Below, in pieces: positions 1 through 19,781 of a stretch of DNA of 26,984 nucleotides. Every line of letters starts with the position of its first letter. Positions within the stretch are counted from its first letter, which is position 1. The stretch lies in IMG/VR virus record IMGVR_UViG_3300042318_000386, positions 1-26,984 of that record. One strand, 5' to 3'. Below the pieces are notes generated by a model that was not told where the DNA came from, made no database searches, and saw only the letters and a program-made list of their open reading frames with translations. Made by a program: the position numbers and the translations under genes. This DNA is from a virus. Taxonomy: Duplodnaviria; Caudoviricetes.

Positions 1-3000
1 CACCCCAATGACCTAATACAGATAAATCAGCAGCTAATCTTGATGATTGATTCATTCTAAAATTAGCCATATTTAAAAATAGTTTAGCAAGTATCTTTCT
101 ATCAGACCCACTTTTGCTAAACCAAGACCCTGATAATGCACTGTCAGGAGTATTTTGTTGTCTTGATACCATCGTCTCTGCATAGTCTCCTGCCTGCTCA
201 TTTAATTTATGTTTACTATAATCTAAATTTTTAGTATCAATTCCTTGTTTTTTTAGTTCTTGTTCATAATAAGTTTGCCAAGAAGCTCTTGCAATAAACA
301 CATCAGGTTTAACCAAGAATGTTTTTAACCACCACTTATTAGCATTCTCAATTGCTTTCAAAAGTTCTACTTTATTTGATGCAGTCTCAATCTTTTTGTT
401 TAAAGAACTAATCTCTGCTTGAGATTCAATTCCCCTATTTGCACTAGCATATCCGGTATTGTAGAAAAAATTATTGAAGTCAGGATTGAATGCAGCTCCT
501 AATTTTAGTAATGATGATGCATTTACCATAGTATTTACTCCAATTGGAATAGTTTGTTTAATTGCCTGTGTTGGAGAACCTAACGCCATACCTACCCCTA
601 AAGTTGCTAGTTTATCAAGAAATTTCATCATTCCATCTAAATCTTCACTACCATTGTATTCTGCATTTCTAATATTAGATACATATAAAGCAAATCTTCT
701 TTTTAATAAATCCCTATCTTCTGCATTTGGCATTAATTTATCAAAATATTTTGAATTTTTAAATGCATCTAATTGTCTAATAGCAGCACCTGTATGCATA
801 TCAACTAATACATCCCGTAATGAGTTAACATTATTTTTATCAAAAGAGTAATCACGATACATACCTTTTGGTAATTTATCAGGATGTTCTGCTTTCATCA
901 ATCCACCTGCTTCTTTTTTAATTAAAAATTCTCCATCCCTTCCATACATAGGTTGGTCATCTGTTAAAAGTTTATTTTTTTCTTTACTTAATTTAACATA
1001 CCTATCAGGAGAAGAATAATTTAAGTTTTTTTCTAATAATGTATTTCTAACATTTAACATATAGTCAGATATTTCAGGGAAAATATCATCATAGGTTTTT
1101 ATCCAAAGATTAATAGCCTCTAGATTTGTTTTGTCTAACTTTTTTTCTATATCGTTTATATTTTTAGAACCTTTAACTATATTGTCATATACCTTTTGGT
1201 ATATTTTACCTTTCTGCTGTTGCTCATCTGTACCTGTTGAAAGTTCTTCAATGGATTGTTCTAATATTGACTTTCTTCTGTTAAATTCTTTTTGCATTTC
1301 AGACTCAGTGCCAATAACACTTCTCATTAAATCTGAAGCTATACCTCTTTCTGCATCATTGTATGCGGTGTTAAACTTTTCACCATTAGGTTTTGTTTTA
1401 AATAATTTGTCAATATATTCTTTAGTTATATTTTGAATCCTTGTATTTGCAAATGCATTACCATTAACTATTTTGTTGAATCCTGATTTAGTTGCTATGT
1501 AAAGACCTTCTCTAACTCCTTTGAATATTTTAGTAAATACTTCAGGTAAAGGAGTGCCTCCTTCTGTTAAAACTCTTGCTAATGGTTTACTCCATAATTT
1601 ACGTAAAGCAATACCTACTTTGCCTTGTTTTACAAGTGTTTTTATGTTTAACCTTCCTGTGTAATCAGCAAAAACTCCTTCCATTTTAGCTGTTGAATGG
1701 TTTTGTAAAAAAATAGTTAAAGCATCTACTGCTGCAACTGATTCTTTAGCATCTAATAAATCTAAATCCATATCAGCAAAATTGTTTACTAATTCTTTTT
1801 GTTTTTTAGTAAAATCAACTTTTTCTCCCGTAAATGCATCCACCCCTGTTCTAATTGTATTTTTTACAATAGAAGAGTATATTTTAAATGCATTTTTAGC
1901 TTTTTCTTTTATAGACTTTTCATTATTTACTTTAACTTTTTCATCAACATTTAACAAGTCTAACATTTCTTCAGCACTAAATTTAGATGCGTCTACCCCC
2001 ATAAGGTCTTCTATCTCATCAATTCTTTCTTCTTTAATTTTTTTATTTTGAGCATCTATTTTTTCTTTAATATAATTAGATACATCTTTTATATTTACAA
2101 TTTCTGCAAAGTTTATTTCTCCTTTTCTAGTGGTAGATCCTTTTATTGACTCTTTAATTTGAGCAGCAATTTCATTGTACTTTTCTATATCATCTACCAT
2201 TGATGGATCAATCTCAGAAAATTGTCTACCTAACTCTCTTAAATCAGCATTTTTATCTTTATTTCTTGAAAGTTCAGATATGCTTTGTTTTAATTTTTTA
2301 GCTGTAGCTAATTTAGCTATGTAGTCTGCATTTTCAAAAACCTTAGTCATATAATCAGTAAATGAATTGATTGACTTTTGACTAAGCACATTTACTTTAC
2401 TAAACTTGCGAACAACATTTGCTGCTTGGTTGGTATTTAATTTTCCTTGCTTACGCAATTCTTTTACTTCTTTACTTAATTGTTGAGCTGCTGAATAAAT
2501 AGCTTTCTTAGCATCTTTACCTCCTCTTGCCAAATCCTTTATTTGTTTTACAAGACCTTGCTTTTCAGTCATTGTTATTTTGGCAACATCTTTAATGTTT
2601 CCAAGAATCTTTCCTGCTGATGGAGCTGCTACCTCTTTTAATCCAAACATTCTATTTACCTCACGGAATACTTTCTCACGCTGTACATCAGTGGCTTTTT
2701 CATATACTGATGACTTTGCAACATAGTCCATCACATTCTCTTTCACCTTTTCATTAGGTACTCCACGATCCTTTGATTTTTTTACTATACCATCTACCTC
2801 TTGAATCATTCTATCATATCCCGGCAATTCAGTTTCAGAAATAATTGGCTCTATTTTTAAAGAAGCTTCTTTAGCAACAGGAGTTTTTACACCTTCTAAA
2901 GTAGATAATTCTGCATCATTAAAAAGCACTTCTGCATCATAACTTTCTCCTGTCTCTAATTGAATCAAAACTTTTCCTGCAGTTACACCATCTGAATTTC

Positions 3001-5773
3001 TACCTCTAATTTCAAGCAATCTTACTTGTTTAATGTCTGTAGGTTTTTCATCTGCAAAAGATTCATCTTTAATAGCAGACGCTGATATAATAGGTGCAGG
3101 ATTTTCTCCCACCTTATTTAACGTATACTTTTTAGGAACAAAATTGCCTTGTTCATCTTTTTCAATAGTAATGTTTGGAGAAATATCTTTTACTTTTTCT
3201 TTACCCTGTTCAGGAGTGATGACTTCTTCGGTCCCTGTGGTAGTGACTTCAGGTTGGACGTTTCCTTCGCCCATTTCTTGCAATCCCATTTTGGATTGTT
3301 CGCTGAGTAACACGCTTTCATTTGTTGCTTGTTTTTGAATGGCATCTTCGCTTATTTTAGTTAGTGACTCATTAATTTCATTTATTCTATTTTTTTGCGG
3401 TTTAACTAAAGCATCATCTTTTCCAATTATTTGATTTTCTAAATCTCTTTTTTCTTTTAAGAGATTCATAGATTCTTTTTTTGCTTCAGTATCTAATCCT
3501 TCCGGCATAGATTTAAATAAACCAACTGAATTCCTATAGTTATTTAATGTTTCTTTTGCCTGTTCTATAGTAATATCTCCATTATTATATTCGTTTTTAA
3601 GTTTTGTTACAAATGCTTTTTGAATATTCTCATCATTTGCTGCAGCTTCAAAAATTTTAAATGTAGCATCGTCCATTGCTAAAAATCCCTTTTTAGTATA
3701 TGCAGAACTAATAGCAGTTGGCATACCCATAATAAATCCACCAACTGCTTCTTGTGTTCCTGCTTTAACTACTTCTTTTACCCACTCAGCAGTAAATGTT
3801 TCAGGATTATTAAACATTTTAGTTCCTTTAGCTGCATTGTAAATATCTTTTATACCATATTCAGCTATTTGTTGAGCAGCACCTGTCTCAGCCTCTGCAA
3901 GTCCTGCTGCTGTCAATGTAAGAACTCCTTTTGCAATCATACTTTCAACTTCATTCTGAACAAGTTCTTTAAATGTAGTAGCAGTAGTTGTAGCACCTGA
4001 TTTACCAAGTGCTTTTAAAACTAAATTATTCAATAATCCTTTACTTCCTATTGCATTTCTAAAACCAAATTCTTCAAGAACAGCACCTGCTATTCCAATT
4101 GGTAAAATAATAGCAGCCTTTTCATTTTCTGAAATATCTTTAAAATTAGGATTTGATGACATCTCTTGTTCAAGTCCATCACTAATTTGAGAATAAAATG
4201 ATGCAGTTGTTAATGCCCTTCCTCCCAATCCCCCTGCCATTGAAGGAAGTATTGCAGGTAATGATTTTATAAGACCTGCATAAGCTCCTCCCCAAAATCC
4301 TTGTTCTTTTAAACGAGTCCATTCAACAGTTGTTTTTGAATCTCCTAAAACAACTCTGTTACCTTCTCTTATAGTAGGAAGTATATCAGCTTTTACTTGT
4401 TTTTTGCTTAAATCTATTATTTTAGAATCTATTTCATCTTTTTCTGATTGACTTAAAGAATTTAACCATTTCTCATAAGATTGTCCTTCAGTTGGTTGTT
4501 TTATTTTTAGTTCTTTTGAAATACGTAAAGATTCTGACTTTTGTTGTTCGGGAGTCATTAACATATCTGTTGGTAAAAATCCAAGAGTTAAGTCTATAAA
4601 TGAATTAGCTGCACCTGCAGATATATTTGATGCTCCTTCTAATAAAAAATTTAAAGTACCCCCTAACCAAGTACCTTGTTCTGACTTCATATCAGCATAT
4701 TTGCCAACAGCTTTATTTAATTCTTCTTTTGATTTTGGTAACCTGTCTACCTTTTCAGATATAGAAGTTTGTTTGGACTGTATGTCCAACTTCCTTTGTG
4801 TAGCAGACGTTAATTTGTCTAAGTATTCTTGTGTTCCCTTTTGACTTTGTGGAGTATTTTCTAAGTCTTTTAATTCTTTGTCTACATTATTTTTTTCTGC
4901 AATAAAAGACTTTATTTCTAAATTAAGATTTTCTTCACTTAAATTTATTTTCTTTATTTCGTCATCAATTTCTTTTTGATTTAAGAACTTTTTATTTTCA
5001 TTTTGATATTGCTTTTCAATTAAATCTAGACCACTTAATTGAGCAGTATTTTGTTTAATAAAGTTTTTAAGTCGTTTTGATTCGTCTACTGCCTTAGATG
5101 ACATAAATGGGTCCAAGGATATCTCTATACTTTTACCATTAGGAGCAGTAGCCTTCATCCAATCTCCTGTAGCACCTGACTCTTCAAACTTAAATCCTAG
5201 ATCACCAAATTGGTAGTTCATTTGAGGTACTACGTACTCTTCATTTGAGTTTATTAATTCAGGTGTAACTGATTCAATAGACCCCTTTATTTTAGTTGGT
5301 ATCTCCTGCTCTTTTAATTTGGTTTCTCCAAAAACCTTTTTTTGTTCAAATTTTGGAATACCTATGTTAGATATATCACTTGTAACAGGAGGAGCGTATG
5401 GTTTTTTAAAAAAACTATTGTCAGTCCCTGAAGATGGCAACTCCGAAGAAGTATCTTCCAAAGGAGACTCCGTAAAGGGTTGAACTCCGGGTATTCCGCT
5501 TGGTGCTTGCTGTGGAGCCATTGGAAATATTGGCTCTTCTTTTTTTTTTAAAGGAGATTCTTGCCCACTAACTCCAAATTCAGGAAACTTAGCAAACAAT
5601 TCATCTTCTGTTTTATATTTTCCACTATTAGAAGTGGCTACAAAATCTTTTAATACATTAATATCATATCCTTTTAACTCAGGAAATTTAGATAATAAGG
5701 TAGCTTCATCGGGATATTTTCCGCTATTAGAAGTAGCTACAAAATCTTTTAACGCTTGTTTTAAATCCGGCAT
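1..5773 (-). CDS. Giant internal virion / DNA ejection-type protein, at least 1924 aa, 3'-truncated by the window edge (absent from the ORF track)
   Basis: ATG at 5773-5771 after an A/T-rich leader. I read every codon down to position 2 and found no stop (MPDLKQALKDFVATSNSGKY...QSSRLAADLSVLGHWG>). It has Gly/Ala-rich hydrophobic segments (EQGFWGGAYAGLIKSLPAILPSMAGGLGG; AAIILPIGIAGAVLEEFGF; QEAVGGFIMGMPTAISSA) among charged helical regions. Its position after the nozzle, GNAT-like and two smaller internal proteins matches the T7 gp14-16 / P22 gp7-20-16 layout. The ORF is certain; the function is inferred. Confidence 0.85.
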   Translation of the reverse strand, partial: MPDLKQALKDFVATSNSGKYPDEATLLSKFPELKGYDINVLKDFVATSNSGKYKTEDELFAKFPEFGVSGQESPLKKKEEPIFPMAPQQAPSGIPGVQPFTESPLEDTSSELPSSGTDNSFFKKPYAPPVTSDISNIGIPKFEQKKVFGETKLKEQEIPTKIKGSIESVTPELINSNEEYVVPQMNYQFGDLGFKFEESGATGDWMKATAPNGKSIEISLDPFMSSKAVDESKRLKNFIKQNTAQLSGLDLIEKQYQNENKKFLNQKEIDDEIKKINLSEENLNLEIKSFIAEKNNVDKELKDLENTPQSQKGTQEYLDKLTSATQRKLDIQSKQTSISEKVDRLPKSKEELNKAVGKYADMKSEQGTWLGGTLNFLLEGASNISAGAANSFIDLTLGFLPTDMLMTPEQQKSESLRISKELKIKQPTEGQSYEKWLNSLSQSEKDEIDSKIIDLSKKQVKADILPTIREGNRVVLGDSKTTVEWTRLKEQGFWGGAYAGLIKSLPAILPSMAGGLGGRALTTASFYSQISDGLEQEMSSNPNFKDISENEKAAIILPIGIAGAVLEEFGFRNAIGSKGLLNNLVLKALGKSGATTTATTFKELVQNEVESMIAKGVLTLTAAGLAEAETGAAQQIAEYGIKDIYNAAKGTKMFNNPETFTAEWVKEVVKAGTQEAVGGFIMGMPTAISSAYTKKGFLAMDDATFKIFEAAANDENIQKAFVTKLKNEYNNGDITIEQAKETLNNYRNSVGLFKSMPEGLDTEAKKESMNLLKEKRDLENQIIGKDDALVKPQKNRINEINESLTKISEDAIQKQATNESVLLSEQSKMGLQEMGEGNVQPEVTTTGTEEVITPEQGKEKVKDISPNITIEKDEQGNFVPKKYTLNKVGENPAPIISASAIKDESFADEKPTDIKQVRLLEIRGRNSDGVTAGKVLIQLETGESYDAEVLFNDAELSTLEGVKTPVAKEASLKIEPIISETELPGYDRMIQEVDGIVKKSKDRGVPNEKVKENVMDYVAKSSVYEKATDVQREKVFREVNRMFGLKEVAAPSAGKILGNIKDVAKITMTEKQGLVKQIKDLARGGKDAKKAIYSAAQQLSKEVKELRKQGKLNTNQAANVVRKFSKVNVLSQKSINSFTDYMTKVFENADYIAKLATAKKLKQSISELSRNKDKNADLRELGRQFSEIDPSMVDDIEKYNEIAAQIKESIKGSTTRKGEINFAEIVNIKDVSNYIKEKIDAQNKKIKEERIDEIEDLMGVDASKFSAEEMLDLLNVDEKVKVNNEKSIKEKAKNAFKIYSSIVKNTIRTGVDAFTGEKVDFTKKQKELVNNFADMDLDLLDAKESVAAVDALTIFLQNHSTAKMEGVFADYTGRLNIKTLVKQGKVGIALRKLWSKPLARVLTEGGTPLPEVFTKIFKGVREGLYIATKSGFNKIVNGNAFANTRIQNITKEYIDKLFKTKPNGEKFNTAYNDAERGIASDLMRSVIGTESEMQKEFNRRKSILEQSIEELSTGTDEQQQKGKIYQKVYDNIVKGSKNINDIEKKLDKTNLEAINLWIKTYDDIFPEISDYMLNVRNTLLEKNLNYSSPDRYVKLSKEKNKLLTDDQPMYGRDGEFLIKKEAGGLMKAEHPDKLPKGMYRDYSFDKNNVNSLRDVLVDMHTGAAIRQLDAFKNSKYFDKLMPNAEDRDLLKRRFALYVSNIRNAEYNGSEDLDGMMKFLDKLATLGVGMALGSPTQAIKQTIPIGVNTMVNASSLLKLGAAFNPDFNNFFYNTGYASANRGIESQAEISSLNKKIETASNKVELLKAIENANKWWLKTFLVKPDVFIARASWQTYYEQELKKQGIDTKNLDYSKHKLNEQAGDYAETMVSRQQNTPDSALSGSWFSKSGSDRKILAKLFLNMANFRMNQSSRLAADLSVLGHWG
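3190..3345 (-). CDS. Candidate nested small basic protein (51 aa) in the +1 frame of the giant gene
   Basis: ATG 3345-3343 to TAA 3192-3190: MPFKNKQQMKACYSANNPKWDCKKWAKETSNLKSLPQGPKKSSLLNRVKKK. A-rich leader (AACTAAAATAAGCGAAG-ATG), a local GC rise, and atypical C-ending codons in the host frame. Confidence 0.6.
   Translation of the reverse strand: MPFKNKQQMKACYSANNPKWDCKKWAKETSNLKSLPQGPKKSSLLNRVKKK
5421..5552 (-). other. Candidate programmed -1 frameshift cassette (slippery site, hairpin, alternative-frame tail)
   Basis: CCT TTA AAA AAA AAA GAA contains in-phase X_XXY_YYZ heptamers (T_TTA_AAA, A_AAA_AAA) at 5552-5540. A hairpin GAGCCA-N10-TGGCTC follows at 5536-5515. The -1 frame stays open to TGA at 5423-5421. 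Confidence 0.5.
5615..5752 (-). repeat. Direct repeat of 39 nt x2 (37/39 identical, 99-nt period), part of a 33-aa tandem repeat at the N-terminus of the giant protein
   Basis: Copies at 5615-5653 and 5714-5752. Protein: LKDFVATSNSGKYPDEATLLSKFPEL / LKDFVATSNSGKYKTEDELFAKFPEF. Confidence 0.95.
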
Positions 5774-5794: not shown

Positions 5795-7675
5795 CTACCT
5801 AGTCTTACCACCTTTTATAGTTCCTGTTCCTGCTTTTTTTGTTGCTGCTTCTTCATCTGCTTTCTCTTCTGCTGTTTGAAATAATTTTGATGCTTTTATT
5901 ACATTATTATCTCTATTCTTTTTAATAAAATCTGCAATTTTATTTGTATTTTTTAAATCATCAATATTTATCCATTCACTCATTGTACCATTAGGTGCTT
6001 TAATTTGTATAACATCATCTCGAGTTATTCCACGAGTTTCTCCTTCAAATGTATAACCTAATTTACCAAAAGATTGTTTTAACTTTTTAACTGTTTCCAC
6101 CGGGTTATCTTCTACAATTGATGTTGAAATTGCTTCATTTGCATAATTGCCTAAATCAGTTCCATAATCTCTTTCTACAATCGCTTTTGTTGAGCTTTTT
6201 GCTGAATACCCTGTTGGTCCTTTCCCTTTTTTCAACTTATCATCCATAGCTTTTACAACTGCTTCTTCAGGCAACTTATCTATATTTAATAATTTAGCAA
6301 TTGCTATACCTACATTATGAGCATTTTTAAATCCTCCATTTTTATCTAATTCAAATTTTCTATTTATTAAATTACCTTCTTTATCAGTAACAGTAAGATC
6401 AAAAGTAAATTCATCTTTTATTGCATTTACTCCCTCAAAAGTATTGAAATAATCAGCAGAAGCTTGAGTTTCTTCTGCATTTTGTCCTGAAACAAAATCA
6501 GCTACTTTTTGTCCAAAAATTAAAGCATCATCTTTTGCTTGTTCAAATCCAATTTCTGCTGCTGTTTTTGCTCTAGGTTCATTTCTATCTAATTGAGCTG
6601 TAGTTTTAATATCTTCTTTGTAATCATATCTACGCCTAAATTCATTACGCATAAAATTATCAGAATCTTTTATTTGTACATCTGAAAAAACAGGTTTTGG
6701 TTTGCCTGAATTTTCGTCTACTTTTATTAATATTTTCTCAGGATTATTTTTTGCATCTGTTTCATCTTCTGTAAATGTATATTGTTTATTATTTTTACTA
6801 CAAAATTTTACACTATTTGTAATAGCAGACATTCTATTAATATCATTGGCATAAACTGATTTTATTCCTTGATTTTCTGCATCTATAAATTTAAAGAGAA
6901 CTTCTTTAGTATCAGGATCAATATCTGTTCTACTTGTGATATCAGCAATACTTGTTATTTGACCCGTTTTGCTTAGTGTAGCAACCTGAGTTGTTGTTGC
7001 TTTTAATTCATCCCCCAATTGTCCAACAAAAGCATTTGCTGCTGAGTTAGTATCGAATTTATCATAAAATCCTTGAATCCAATTTTTTACAGTATTTACA
7101 GTAGCAAATGTGTTAGGATTCTTGTCCATTACATAAACATCTTTACCATCAATATTTTTCAATGTTTTCATTGCTATACTAACAGTACCATCAGTAGGGT
7201 TAATCCTCAAATCAGATTTATTAAAATTAGCCATCATTTCAGATTTTCCCATTAACCATTGTTCAAAATCTTGTGACTTATCAGTTCTATATCTTTCCAT
7301 TTTATCGCCGTACACTTTCTGATAGTCTTTCATAAGAGAAAATGCTACATCAGTACCATCAGTTAAATTTTGTCTTGAAATGGTGTAATCTTTAACTTTC
7401 ATTTGACCTGACTTCAAAAGTTGGTCTTGCATTTTTAAAAATTGAGATGCATTATCGCCAAAACGCAATGTCCACTCATTAGCTCCTGTATGTTCTCCTT
7501 GTGGTGGTTGAGCTAATACTAAACCAAATTCTCTTGATGCAGCATCAATTGCAGCTTTTTTTTCTTCTCTAATTTTTACCTCATCTTTGAGCATATCGCT
7601 CATATCCTTACCAACCTCTGCCCAATTTATTTGAGAATCAGCATTTCTTTCTGCGTATTTATAATATGTTCCCAT
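5795..7675 (-). CDS. Putative internal virion (ejection/cargo) protein, 626 aa
   Basis: Long ORF of charged, helical composition, lying between the small ejection-like protein and the giant protein (T7 gp15-like position). Its C-terminal domain resembles a domain of the giant protein. Confidence 0.7.
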   Translation of the reverse strand: MGTYYKYAERNADSQINWAEVGKDMSDMLKDEVKIREEKKAAIDAASREFGLVLAQPPQGEHTGANEWTLRFGDNASQFLKMQDQLLKSGQMKVKDYTISRQNLTDGTDVAFSLMKDYQKVYGDKMERYRTDKSQDFEQWLMGKSEMMANFNKSDLRINPTDGTVSIAMKTLKNIDGKDVYVMDKNPNTFATVNTVKNWIQGFYDKFDTNSAANAFVGQLGDELKATTTQVATLSKTGQITSIADITSRTDIDPDTKEVLFKFIDAENQGIKSVYANDINRMSAITNSVKFCSKNNKQYTFTEDETDAKNNPEKILIKVDENSGKPKPVFSDVQIKDSDNFMRNEFRRRYDYKEDIKTTAQLDRNEPRAKTAAEIGFEQAKDDALIFGQKVADFVSGQNAEETQASADYFNTFEGVNAIKDEFTFDLTVTDKEGNLINRKFELDKNGGFKNAHNVGIAIAKLLNIDKLPEEAVVKAMDDKLKKGKGPTGYSAKSSTKAIVERDYGTDLGNYANEAISTSIVEDNPVETVKKLKQSFGKLGYTFEGETRGITRDDVIQIKAPNGTMSEWINIDDLKNTNKIADFIKKNRDNNVIKASKLFQTAEEKADEEAATKKAGTGTIKGGKTR

Positions 7676-7689
7676 TGATTATTTTTTAA

Positions 7690-8511
7690 TTACCTTGAAA
7701 ATCCTGCTTGTCTCATTCTTCTTAAATTCCTAACATCTTGTTGAGTCATATAACTTCTAAATGGATCATTCTCCATAGCTCCAACTCCTGATACATTAAA
7801 CCCATAATCAACTCCTGTTCCACCTCCCATTGACTGAACAGCTTGTTGGAATGGCATAGCTACTCCATTTTGCATATATCTAGGGTCTAGTCTATTGTTT
7901 CGAGCAGCAGAAGCATAGTCTGATTGCAATTTTCCAAACTCTTTTGCTGATTGTGATTTCTCATAAAGTGGAGCATATTGAGTTAATTGTTGCCCCAAAC
8001 TTGTAACACCTTGCATCCCCTGTTGCATTGCTTGAGCACCCAATTCTTGAGCATTTGCTGCTGCTAATTGAGCACCTGCAACCTCCTCTAAGTCTAATTG
8101 AGTTCCTACATCACGAAGTCTACTATCTTCTTGAGCACTTAATTTCTCAAGATTGCTTAACTCTTGACCCATTGCAGACCTTATTCCTCCTTGTCCTTCA
8201 TTCATAGCCATTTGTACACGACCTGCAGTTGCTGCTGCACCTCTTTCACTTTCTACACCTGCTTGAATAGCTTGAGCACCTTGAGAAAGAAGAGCCTCTC
8301 TTTCTAATTCATATGGTTCTTTTTGTATAGATAACTTGTCATAATAATTTATCTCAAGTTTTTTTCTTGCTTCTTGCATAGCTTGATCTGCATCTCTTTC
8401 AGCTTGACGTTGTGCTCTTTTTTGATTACCTGCTTGCACAAATGACATAGTAGTAGAAGCTGCAGTTGTTGCTAACCCTATTCCTGCTGCAATGGTTGTA
8501 AATGCTGCCAT
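7690..8511 (-). CDS. Putative internal virion / ejection protein, 273 aa (T7 gp14 / P22 gp7-like position)
   Basis: Hydrophobic Ala/Gly/Thr N-terminus (MAAFTTIAAGIGLATTAASTTMSF) followed by an Ala/Gln-rich coiled coil; directly downstream of the GNAT-like gene. Confidence 0.7.
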   Translation of the reverse strand: MAAFTTIAAGIGLATTAASTTMSFVQAGNQKRAQRQAERDADQAMQEARKKLEINYYDKLSIQKEPYELEREALLSQGAQAIQAGVESERGAAATAGRVQMAMNEGQGGIRSAMGQELSNLEKLSAQEDSRLRDVGTQLDLEEVAGAQLAAANAQELGAQAMQQGMQGVTSLGQQLTQYAPLYEKSQSAKEFGKLQSDYASAARNNRLDPRYMQNGVAMPFQQAVQSMGGGTGVDYGFNVSGVGAMENDPFRSYMTQQDVRNLRRMRQAGFSR

Positions 8512-18362: not shown

Positions 18363-19781
18363 CTATCCGTAACGGAACAATACAAAGTTATTTGCTCCAA
18401 GAGTACATACGCAACGCTCAGAAAGGAAGTTAACCTCCATTGCATCCAAGTCGCTTGTAGCAGCACCACCGGCAGAACCTGTGATCCAAGTCTTATATCT
18501 ACGATCTTCAGCTTCAGAAGCACGGTACCTAACGTGTAAGAAAGGACGTTTAGCATTCTTGCCCATAATCTGATCGTAAACTGAGGTAGAACCTGCAGGA
18601 ACCATCAAACCTGTAATAGTACCTGTTGCAGTTGCAGCAGCACTACTCAAACCACCACGCATTGTTGGGTCATTCAAGTATTTCCAATCAGACTTGTAGA
18701 AATCATAACCTCTACGGAATCCTGTGAAACCTAAGTTTAACGCCATATCAACATCATTGTCAAAAAGACCATATGAAGCTGATTGAGAAGCAACACCTGC
18801 AGCGTAACCGTTTAGTTGAGCCAACATATTGTCGATATCAAAACTAAGACCACGATTTACAAATACTACGTTTTCTTCAATAGCACCTTGCTTATCCAAA
18901 CGAGAAACGATAGAATCCCAATCAGACAAAGTTGTTGGAGTACCACCACCCCATACGTTACCACGATCATTTACTACGTAGAAGATACCTTGAGAACCAA
19001 TGTATCCTGCAGTTGCAGCACCGGAAGTTGTTGCAGCAGGAACTGCTTCAATCATTGCAGTTTCTAGATAATCTTCAAAACGAAGACGAGTCTCGTGCTC
19101 TGATTTCAAATACCACAAGTATCCTGTAGCACCGTTCTCAGTAGTAACTTCAACCCATCCAATTTGAGCCATATCAGAACCATTAACCGCATACTTATCT
19201 TTAATGATAATAGGGTTATTGCTGTAGATATCATCTTCAGACTCTAGAGAACCAACCATTCCGTTAGTTCCTTTTTTAAACTCAGAACCGTAAATGAATA
19301 CAGTACAAGCTGTAGATACTGCAAACGCTTGACCTGCAGTCTCATAATAAGCTACAGTGAAAGTTGTTGCTGAACCTACTGCAGTTACAATAGCTTTGTT
19401 GAAAACACCTGTTGAGTTGTTTTGAATCATCAAAGTTTGTCCAACACGGATAGCTATGTAAGTTACACCGGCATCAGCTACAGTAAAAGTTGCTGTAGAA
19501 GCACCTGCTGCTGCTGCTGAAGTACAACTTGTGTACTTAATGTGTAAACGTCCTTGTTCTGCCCATTTAATTTGATCAGAGTTAGACGGCATCTCTGCTC
19601 CTACCATACGTAAGAAAGATGCGATTGTTCTGTTACCATAACGCTCAAATTCTTTCTCATAAGTATCAGGTAGATACTGATTTAAGAAGTTAAAGTTAGT
19701 AATGTAGTTTGTTTGTAATGCCACCTGTTCTGCAGAAGGCTGCAGGGCGAAGGTGGGATTATTTAATAATGCACTTGCCAT
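18363..19781 (-). CDS. Major capsid protein (HK97 fold expected), 472 aa
   Basis: Follows the portal and an acidic scaffold gene; higher GC and codon bias suggesting high expression; IKWAEQGRLH motif followed by a beta-rich insertion domain; followed by a strong terminator. Confidence 0.85.
   Translation of the reverse strand: MASALLNNPTFALQPSAEQVALQTNYITNFNFLNQYLPDTYEKEFERYGNRTIASFLRMVGAEMPSNSDQIKWAEQGRLHIKYTSCTSAAAAGASTATFTVADAGVTYIAIRVGQTLMIQNNSTGVFNKAIVTAVGSATTFTVAYYETAGQAFAVSTACTVFIYGSEFKKGTNGMVGSLESEDDIYSNNPIIIKDKYAVNGSDMAQIGWVEVTTENGATGYLWYLKSEHETRLRFEDYLETAMIEAVPAATTSGAATAGYIGSQGIFYVVNDRGNVWGGGTPTTLSDWDSIVSRLDKQGAIEENVVFVNRGLSFDIDNMLAQLNGYAAGVASQSASYGLFDNDVDMALNLGFTGFRRGYDFYKSDWKYLNDPTMRGGLSSAAATATGTITGLMVPAGSTSVYDQIMGKNAKRPFLHVRYRASEAEDRRYKTWITGSAGGAATSDLDAMEVNFLSERCVCTLGANNFVLFRYG

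Follow-up and report, generated by a model that had tools for sequence, protein, structure and literature searches.

The stretch analyzed here, called the window, is the whole 26,984 nucleotides (nt) of the 27-kb virus record IMGVR_UViG_3300042318_000386 in IMG/VR, and the subject is a putative recoding site near the 5' end of a giant gene on its minus strand. The giant gene (2..5773, start of the open reading frame (ORF) at 5773) encodes more than 1,924 amino acids (aa), is open to the window edge, and is the third and largest of a trio of predicted ejection-protein genes. It begins with a two-repeat helical domain of about 66 aa (5576..5773), which a structural model and co-variation suggest to be a docking domain. 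Seventy-five codons into the gene, at about 4% or less of its length, lies the slip site (5540..5552), recognized from its sequence and its conservation, in which the heptamer T_TTA_AAA (5552-5546) overlaps a run of ten A residues (A10, 5549-5540); two A_AAA_AAA heptamers are also in phase there. Reading on in the -1 frame gives a tail of 41 codons plus TGA (5421..5546, stop at 5423-5421) and a product of 117 aa that has the N-terminal domain in common with the giant protein. The tail is basic with few acidic residues, has no ATG, GTG or TTG of its own, and contains the conserved motif YGxxFG[RK][WY]FFG (here YGVSFGRYFFG, 5442..5474), a putative strand-turn-strand, in a region that is GC-rich relative to the rest of the genome. 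All of these features are on the minus strand.

An earlier note on this DNA had described the same layout, with T_TTA_AAA, A10, the 117-aa product, a GC content of 33/60 and a 6-bp hairpin (GAGCCA/TGGCTC, 5515..5536) starting 6 nt past the first A_AAA_AAA; all of these are present as described, on the minus strand. Judged within the window alone, the A10 site is only mildly unusual. It is the longest A-run on the minus strand, but strict in-phase heptamers occur 75 times in the 8,806 codons of 17 ORFs, and at four of the 75 the -1 frame then stays open for at least 30 codons, three of these four being the A10 site itself. Another in-phase T_TTA_AAA, with 41 open -1 codons and no A-run, occurs at codon 488 of the giant gene (4313-4187, minus strand). 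The +1 frame at the A10 site would give a product of 136 aa; in relatives this frame has 22-49 open codons (10th-90th percentile), and no common motif was noticed in the unaligned products. It is the conservation of the site across relatives that places it beyond chance.

Relatives were gathered blind to the motif, using the frame-0 protein of the giant gene (16 loci) and the product of the 273-aa virion gene upstream (17 loci, 14 of which reach the giant gene). Rows left out in the course of the whole analysis were L102 (a chance match), L100 (cut) and L139, L143 and L150 (gene not reached). The motif-blind set comprised 25 distinct genes, the window and 24 relatives. The earlier note had proposed aligning homologous genes to look for a conserved A-run followed by an aromatic/Gly motif in the -1 frame, and both are indeed kept. 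A run of nine or ten A residues is present in 23 of the 25 genes (22 of the 24 relatives); 16-43 open -1 codons follow in 22 of the 23 run-bearing genes, the remaining one being cut by the contig end, and [WY]F[FI]G is found in 19 of the 22 genes with a complete -1 frame, with variants in the other three. The closest relative, L001, is identical to the window across the run. The A-run is retained in genes with an unrelated N-terminal domain (L002, L014, L015 and L148), and also where the downstream giant sequence is unrelated. Farther along the motif-blind genes, runs of A9 or more occur just twice in 110,863 bases. Weighing on the other side, L141 (7474-) and L146 (7806-) have no A-run, which shows that it can be lost; L146 retains a decayed motif in the -1 frame. 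In the cultured Bacteroidota podoviruses phi38:1, Calle_1 and elemoF, an A10 run is followed by aromatic/Gly tails that have diverged. Variant tails were also seen, Trp-rich and amphipathic in L007 and L142 and with the aromatic motif doubled in L010, L015 and Panino, so the tail can be remodelled and yet stay aromatic and basic. No A8 or longer run and no motif was found in ten cargo genes of the Crassvirales phages crAss001 and phi14:2, and no giant gene was seen in a 29-kb stretch of Gundel_1.

The reading frame under selection was examined with 17 distinct 11-codon blocks. Position 3 of the -1 codons has an entropy of 1.18 bits, the other positions 0.57 and 0.58; this wobble position is the second codon position of the giant frame 0. 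Synonymous differences number 375 of 916 in the -1 frame versus 74 of 888 in frame 0, and identity is 0.60 versus 0.40. The motif served as the anchor for the blocks, and pairs of blocks are not independent, both of which count against the test, but the anchor does not force variation at the wobble position. Thus, the -1 frame is under coding selection in the motif block, and the giant's own frame is not conserved there.

Two pattern scans, requiring by design a run of at least nine A residues and then WF[FI]G, gave 211 distinct loci, of which 41 were unrelated and were dropped and 170 were cassette-like (165 in-frame cassettes, four split and one truncated). The run is A10 in 138 of the 165, with lengths from A9 to A12. 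A Gly six residues ahead of the Trp, which was absent from the scan patterns, is found in 155 of the 165, and the tail past the run is net positive in 90% of them. The N-terminal domains are diverse: grouping those of 191 loci at 80% identity gave 159 clusters. A separate scan with the motif alone gave at least 120 loci, at least 106 of them distinct. Among the matches listed, none of 120 has an ATG in the motif frame, and the frame offset by one base stays open as far as the end of the locus in 119 of the 120 and for 256 codons in the other. Any ATG, GTG or TTG start was seen in one of 105 motif-only loci kept (among the matches listed) and in five of the 165 A-run cassettes.

These data bear on the reading that constraint on frame 0 or on an RNA or DNA element produced the motif as a by-product, or that the motif is a separately started micro-ORF, with no recoding. 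The motif codons do yield a recurring Thr/Ser/Asp-rich pattern in frame 0, in a region that is GC-rich for the genome. Such an origin is nonetheless very improbable: variation falls on the -1 wobble positions, which are frame-0 second positions, starts are nearly absent, and two unrelated slip signals, the second described below, stand in phase ahead of the motif. Since the A-run and the -1 motif are conserved and under coding selection, the short isoform is very likely made, and we hold it highly probable that the phage both makes and needs the 117-aa protein.

The tail pattern was also encountered in cellular genomes, where 101 of 120 loci (L395-L514) have it in the main frame. The one cellular match tested is a Leu/Phe-tRNA-protein transferase (PF03588), and most of the others have the flanks of this one; the resemblance to the phage tail probably arose by convergence. 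A gene on a contig of a Flavobacteriaceae metagenome-assembled genome (L449:2184-2666) has the motif segment of L104/L134 near its end without a slip site, and would be a captured fragment or a chimeric assembly.

That the site reflects chance or a homopolymer assembly error in the window contig is a negligible prospect and is contradicted by the conservation: in-frame A10 is the majority form among the cassettes, and L001 is identical across the run. Such errors do, however, strike this run. Five cultured records (phi18:3, phi13:2, phi19:3, phi46:3 and Panino) have A9 and a giant gene split from its N-terminal domain, and the split or late-started annotations lie at L158:20310-20660, L159:4119-4400, L160:5056-5380, L161:5119-5440 and L155:31589-31800. 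In a phi18:3-type record (L166/G001), all four DNA sequencing runs (X1, X8, X6 and X19) read A10 where the record reads A9; in X19 the A10 is in a contig holding 3,195 of 8,874 depth. The extra A is the sole indel in 20 kb. Three 8-base runs in the same stretch are without indel, and the stretch has no second run of nine or more as a control. The agreement of the four runs and the absence of any other indel point to an error in the record, and the split annotation is likely wrong for this one of the five split records. A 'small gene plus giant gene' split in at least one Pachyviridae reference would thus be a one-base homopolymer error. Obligatory slippage as the means of making the giant protein was considered and rejected for L166/G001, where the DNA carries the extra A in all four runs.

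The 117-aa product could arise by slippage of RNA polymerase or of the ribosome, and the earlier note, which had put ribosomal frameshifting first and transcriptional slippage second, named an alternative that fits the A-run lineage at least as well. Runs of nine A/T residues slip efficiently in vivo (available text of PMC5009743), a length that the A10 of the window exceeds, and ribosome sliding is weak at A9-10 (available text of PMC4363877). Among the matches listed, the longest A-run in the open interval of 104 motif-only loci is 2-7 in 62 loci, 8 in none and 9-10 in 42. This jump from seven or fewer to nine or more slightly favours RNA polymerase slippage, and the lack of A8 argues against the ribosome as the agent, for which seven A residues already make a heptamer. 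An A9 starting from the third codon position, the form expected from a change to the shift-prone A_AAA_AAG, occurs in only one of the 165 cassettes.

The hairpin was proposed in the earlier note as the stimulator of a ribosomal shift, a role that its distribution does not support. The window, L001 and L140 have it and L002, L144 and L021 lack it; it is thus missing from three of the six closest sequences. Its energy is -8.1 kcal/mol, with a z score of -3.2 on a 31-nt cut and -0.7 on 86 nt. No conserved 3' structure was found at the A-run sites (mean z -0.29, 165 loci). The hairpin is real in sequence but unconserved, and would be at most a local modulator.

Several observations nevertheless tell against an RNA polymerase mechanism or are neutral between the two. 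The window hairpin is correctly spaced from the slip site, and its stem extends to 9 bp in L001. Strong stems are somewhat enriched after the A-run sites (16% of 165 versus 6% of shuffles). The A-run always holds an in-phase A_AAA_AAA. All three codon phases of the run occur among the 165 cassettes, in line with polymerase slippage, but 117 read NNA AAA AAA AAA, a bias that fits a codon-level mechanism or plain common descent. Finally, a sister lineage carries a ribosomal design, as described below. On balance, a transcriptional slip in the A-run phages comes out as just on the probable side and a ribosomal one as falling somewhat short of it, and both may act. The specific form in which ribosomes slip at T_TTA_AAA or A_AAA_AAA with the help of the hairpin is rather unlikely.

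The earlier note had suggested RNA-seq indels at the run as a check, and this was carried out on contigs from a related phage (L392:14062, G001). Run length does vary, being A9 in X12 and X13 and A10 in X15 where the DNA is A10, but no A11 was found among these RNA contigs, which hide minor forms, and the change is in the wrong direction relative to the gain that polymerase slippage needs. The variation fits slippage, yet shows loss instead of gain, and library stutter explains it equally well.

In the sister lineage the same tail is preceded by a different signal. All counts for this lineage are among the matches listed. An A9-10 run is present in 42 of the 105 motif-only loci kept and missing from the other 63. 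In the loci without the run, GGGAAAN is in phase in 23 of 62 versus 0.04 expected, and strict heptamers are in phase in 35 of 62, where 17 would be expected and the two other phases give 8 and 2. Five heptamer types taken together account for 59 of 62 in phase, with 4 and 1 in the other phases; this set was chosen after inspection of the data, which lessens its weight. Strong stems lie 4-10 nt downstream of 64% of the 59 sites versus 1% of shuffles. The word GG[AG]TG[CT] follows 39 of the sites, 17 of them with a downstream GCA[CT]CC and 15 of these with the matching base, a putative pairing as expected of a pseudoknot. As judged from these patterns, the sister lineage reaches the same tail through G_GGA_AAG-type heptamers and a putative 3' stem or pseudoknot, which is a ribosomal signature.

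The relationship of the two lineages was supported by the capsid protein, which is 51-57% identical to that of the window in all five sister-lineage records considered. Against it stand the two upstream cargo genes, which are matchless in all five records, and a BLAST comparison that gave no link between the two signal classes. With no match for the upstream cargo genes, the orthology of the sister-lineage gene rests on its position and on the shared capsid. In one record (G005, L056) the cassette is, by record coordinates, about 49 kb from the capsid gene, compared with 13-18 kb in the other four, which adds to the doubt; gene order may differ in this record.

The structural module of the window, on the minus strand, includes genes for terminase, portal, a 472-aa virion protein, and ring-like and muzzle-like proteins. 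After the muzzle-like genes come genes of 136, 273, 626 and more than 1,924 aa, in this order and on the same strand. The 273-aa virion gene (7690..8511, minus strand; phrog_13764), used above as the motif-blind bait, has a hydrophobic N-terminus and the position of T7 gp14; the 626-aa gene (5795..7675, minus strand; phrog_35506) has that of T7 gp15. The last three genes thus form the small, medium and large tandem that follows the nozzle gene in a T7-type trio. The 472-aa protein is 51% identical to its counterpart in Maribacter phage Panino, 46% to that of Flavobacterium elemo phages, 25% to that of phi18:3, and 41% to those of Cellulophaga phi38:1 and Calle, where the annotation is major capsid. 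The 3' end of the capsid ORF overlaps, in another frame, an 85-codon ORF starting at 18556 (18363-18556).

The earlier note had called the giant protein an ejection protein. Its gene position is as expected of one, and the positional counterparts in phi18:3 (gp120, gp121 and gp123) bear a GenBank note of detection as virion proteins by tandem mass spectrometry (MS/MS). We use the label for a predicted role, on the grounds of the gene order, like that of T7 gp14/15/16, and of these virion annotations. Family matches lend it no backing, and this counts against it: the giant gene has no Pfam or PHROG match, no family or fold match names it as an ejection protein, and gp16 homology was not found by Pfam or PHROG or in a viral fold match to the N-terminal domain, the only part folded.

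The model of the N-terminal domain has a pLDDT of 84.9, with helices at residues 2-17, 23-29, 38-50 and 56-61, and gave no viral fold match. The tail has no match in Protein Data Bank (PDB) sequences or Pfam, and for residues 1-120 none at or above 0.9 in the ESM Atlas. A HMMER search of 1.84 billion proteins gave 19 tail matches, 18 of which are proteins of 76-112 aa consisting of an N-terminal domain plus the tail and one an unrelated repeat. Three further proteins of this form came from a separate search, and the ten that were looked up sit in clusters of one to three members. These database proteins may derive from indel-bearing contigs or from slipped transcripts.

Across the 191 loci, the C-terminus of the upstream protein co-varies with the N-terminal domain family of the giant, and does so in otherwise unrelated backgrounds. 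In the window, the residues concerned are the last ones of the 626-aa protein (..GGxxR, ~5798-5824). A C-terminal Arg is found in 18 of 18 members of the window's domain family versus 4 of 173 others. Other families have their own upstream ends, such as GxLD-type (14/15 versus 1/176), AP (9/9 versus 1/182) and TYx[WL]N (6/6 versus 0/185); the largest family is weakly marked, with a Y/F end in 34 of 45 versus 36 of 98 in small families. When pairs with unrelated upstream bodies were compared, terminal similarity was 8.6 within domain families versus 1.7 between them. One family combines a longer aromatic motif at the upstream end with a giant protein that begins with short Pro/Phe repeats. In T7, the N-terminal region of gp16 binds the C-terminal region of gp15 (available text of PMC8954989). 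The co-variation suggests that the N-terminal domain and the upstream C-terminal peptide may form a docking pair, like swappable modules. Two points weigh against this: the C-terminal motif sets were picked after the data had been viewed, and the co-varying sequences are adjacent, so joint transfer by recombination could explain the pairing without binding. A complex prediction for the N-terminal domain with the 32 C-terminal aa of the upstream protein scored 0.19, the mark being 0.32, which speaks neither for nor against binding.

Taken together, the conserved A10 site and the selected -1 frame probably divert some expression of the giant gene into the 117-aa protein, most likely through the addition of one A by RNA polymerase. 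In the mechanism that we propose, the polymerase would add an extra A on the A10 run, the -1 frame would then be read, and the N-terminal repeats of the short product would bind the C-terminal peptide of the adjacent 626-aa protein. There the short isoform would occupy docking sites in place of the bulky giant, so fixing the giant's copy number, and the basic, aromatic hairpin of the tail might tether the complex to the membrane or to the interior of the portal or capsid. We offer this function in docking, copy number and tethering tentatively. An equally tentative possibility is that the short protein is not structural filler but, like lambda G/GT, acts outside the virion as a regulator or as a chaperone of assembly, or serves as a degradable sink that tunes the level of the giant. 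In lambda, G and GT have an N-terminal binding domain in common, must be present in a fixed ratio and are not found in virions (available text of PMC5009743), and nothing in our data places the isoform in the virion; a pure sink, however, would have no need of a conserved aromatic motif, and the domain common to both products is part of a protein whose counterpart is annotated as a virion protein by mass spectrometry. More broadly, this Bacteroidota podovirus group might have a fourth, unannotated ejection subunit, an adaptor made of docking domain and aromatic hairpin that recoding cuts from the giant gene. This adaptor would vie with the giant for exchangeable docking peptides on the tunnel protein, setting the stoichiometry and anchoring the complex, with the switch between ribosomal and polymerase slippage preserving the ratio; we regard this extension as speculative and doubtful.

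If made, the short protein would be an overlooked part of the predicted DNA-injection machinery of these phages, and it bears on how podoviruses set the copy numbers of their ejection proteins. The conserved cassettes predict an unannotated protein of 60-117 aa in cultured phages of the Pervagoviridae, the Pachyviridae and Elemovirus. The two signals, an A9-12 run or a heptamer with a stem, form a natural interchangeable pair for comparing polymerase and ribosomal slippage in Bacteroidota. No description of the cassette was found in the literature searched, in which subscription journals and supplements were mostly outside the range, and the word 'frameshift' does not occur in the main text of PMC8954989 or PMC10172136. 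The kind of mechanism is known; what appears new is the gene concerned, its truncation so early on with a hidden tail under selection, and the exchange of one slip signal for another. Well-known recoding in phages concerns tail-chaperone and capsid genes, and here it concerns a predicted ejection-protein gene that is cut after about 75 codons, with a motif that exists solely in the hidden frame.

The arrangement of the cargo genes resembles that of T7 gp14/gp15/gp16 (PMC8954989) and crAss001 gp45/46/47 (PMC10172136), where, in the available text, small, medium and giant genes also stand in tandem after a muzzle-like gene; unlike these relationships of position, no sequence homology between the T7 ejectosome or crAss001 cargo genes and the window genes was detected. 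Among recoded genes, lambda G/GT likewise gives two products with a common N-terminal binding domain in a set ratio (available text of PMC5009743), and the sister lineage uses G_GGA_AAG-type heptamers as lambda does. The window gene differs in being a cargo gene of the podovirus type and in using an A10 run, and no tape-measure gene was seen; its site, close to the 5' end of the giant gene, truncates the product, where that of lambda, in the chaperone gene ahead of the one for the tape measure, extends it. In the T7 10A/10B capsid frameshift and in the slippage of the Shigella type III secretion genes mxiE, spa33 and mxiA, recoding also sets the ratios of structural or secretion proteins, and in spa33 and mxiA slippage yields truncated products, as in the window (available text of PMC5009743). 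These genes are other than ejection-protein genes, and the available part of that source describes no conserved terminal motif encoded in their -1 frame.

A further parallel in design is dnaX. In E. coli dnaX, a ribosomal -1 shift occurs at A_AAA_AAG, and the shifted frame stops almost at once. In Thermus thermophilus dnaX, RNA polymerase slips on a 9-base run (available text of PMC5009743). As with tau and gamma, the long product of the giant gene is read in frame 0 and the short one would come from recoding, with polymerase slippage predicted in one lineage and ribosomal shifting in another. The window gene differs from dnaX in being a phage virion gene, in having its site at about 4% or less of a gene of more than 1,900 codons, and in having a shifted frame that adds a conserved motif to the short product.

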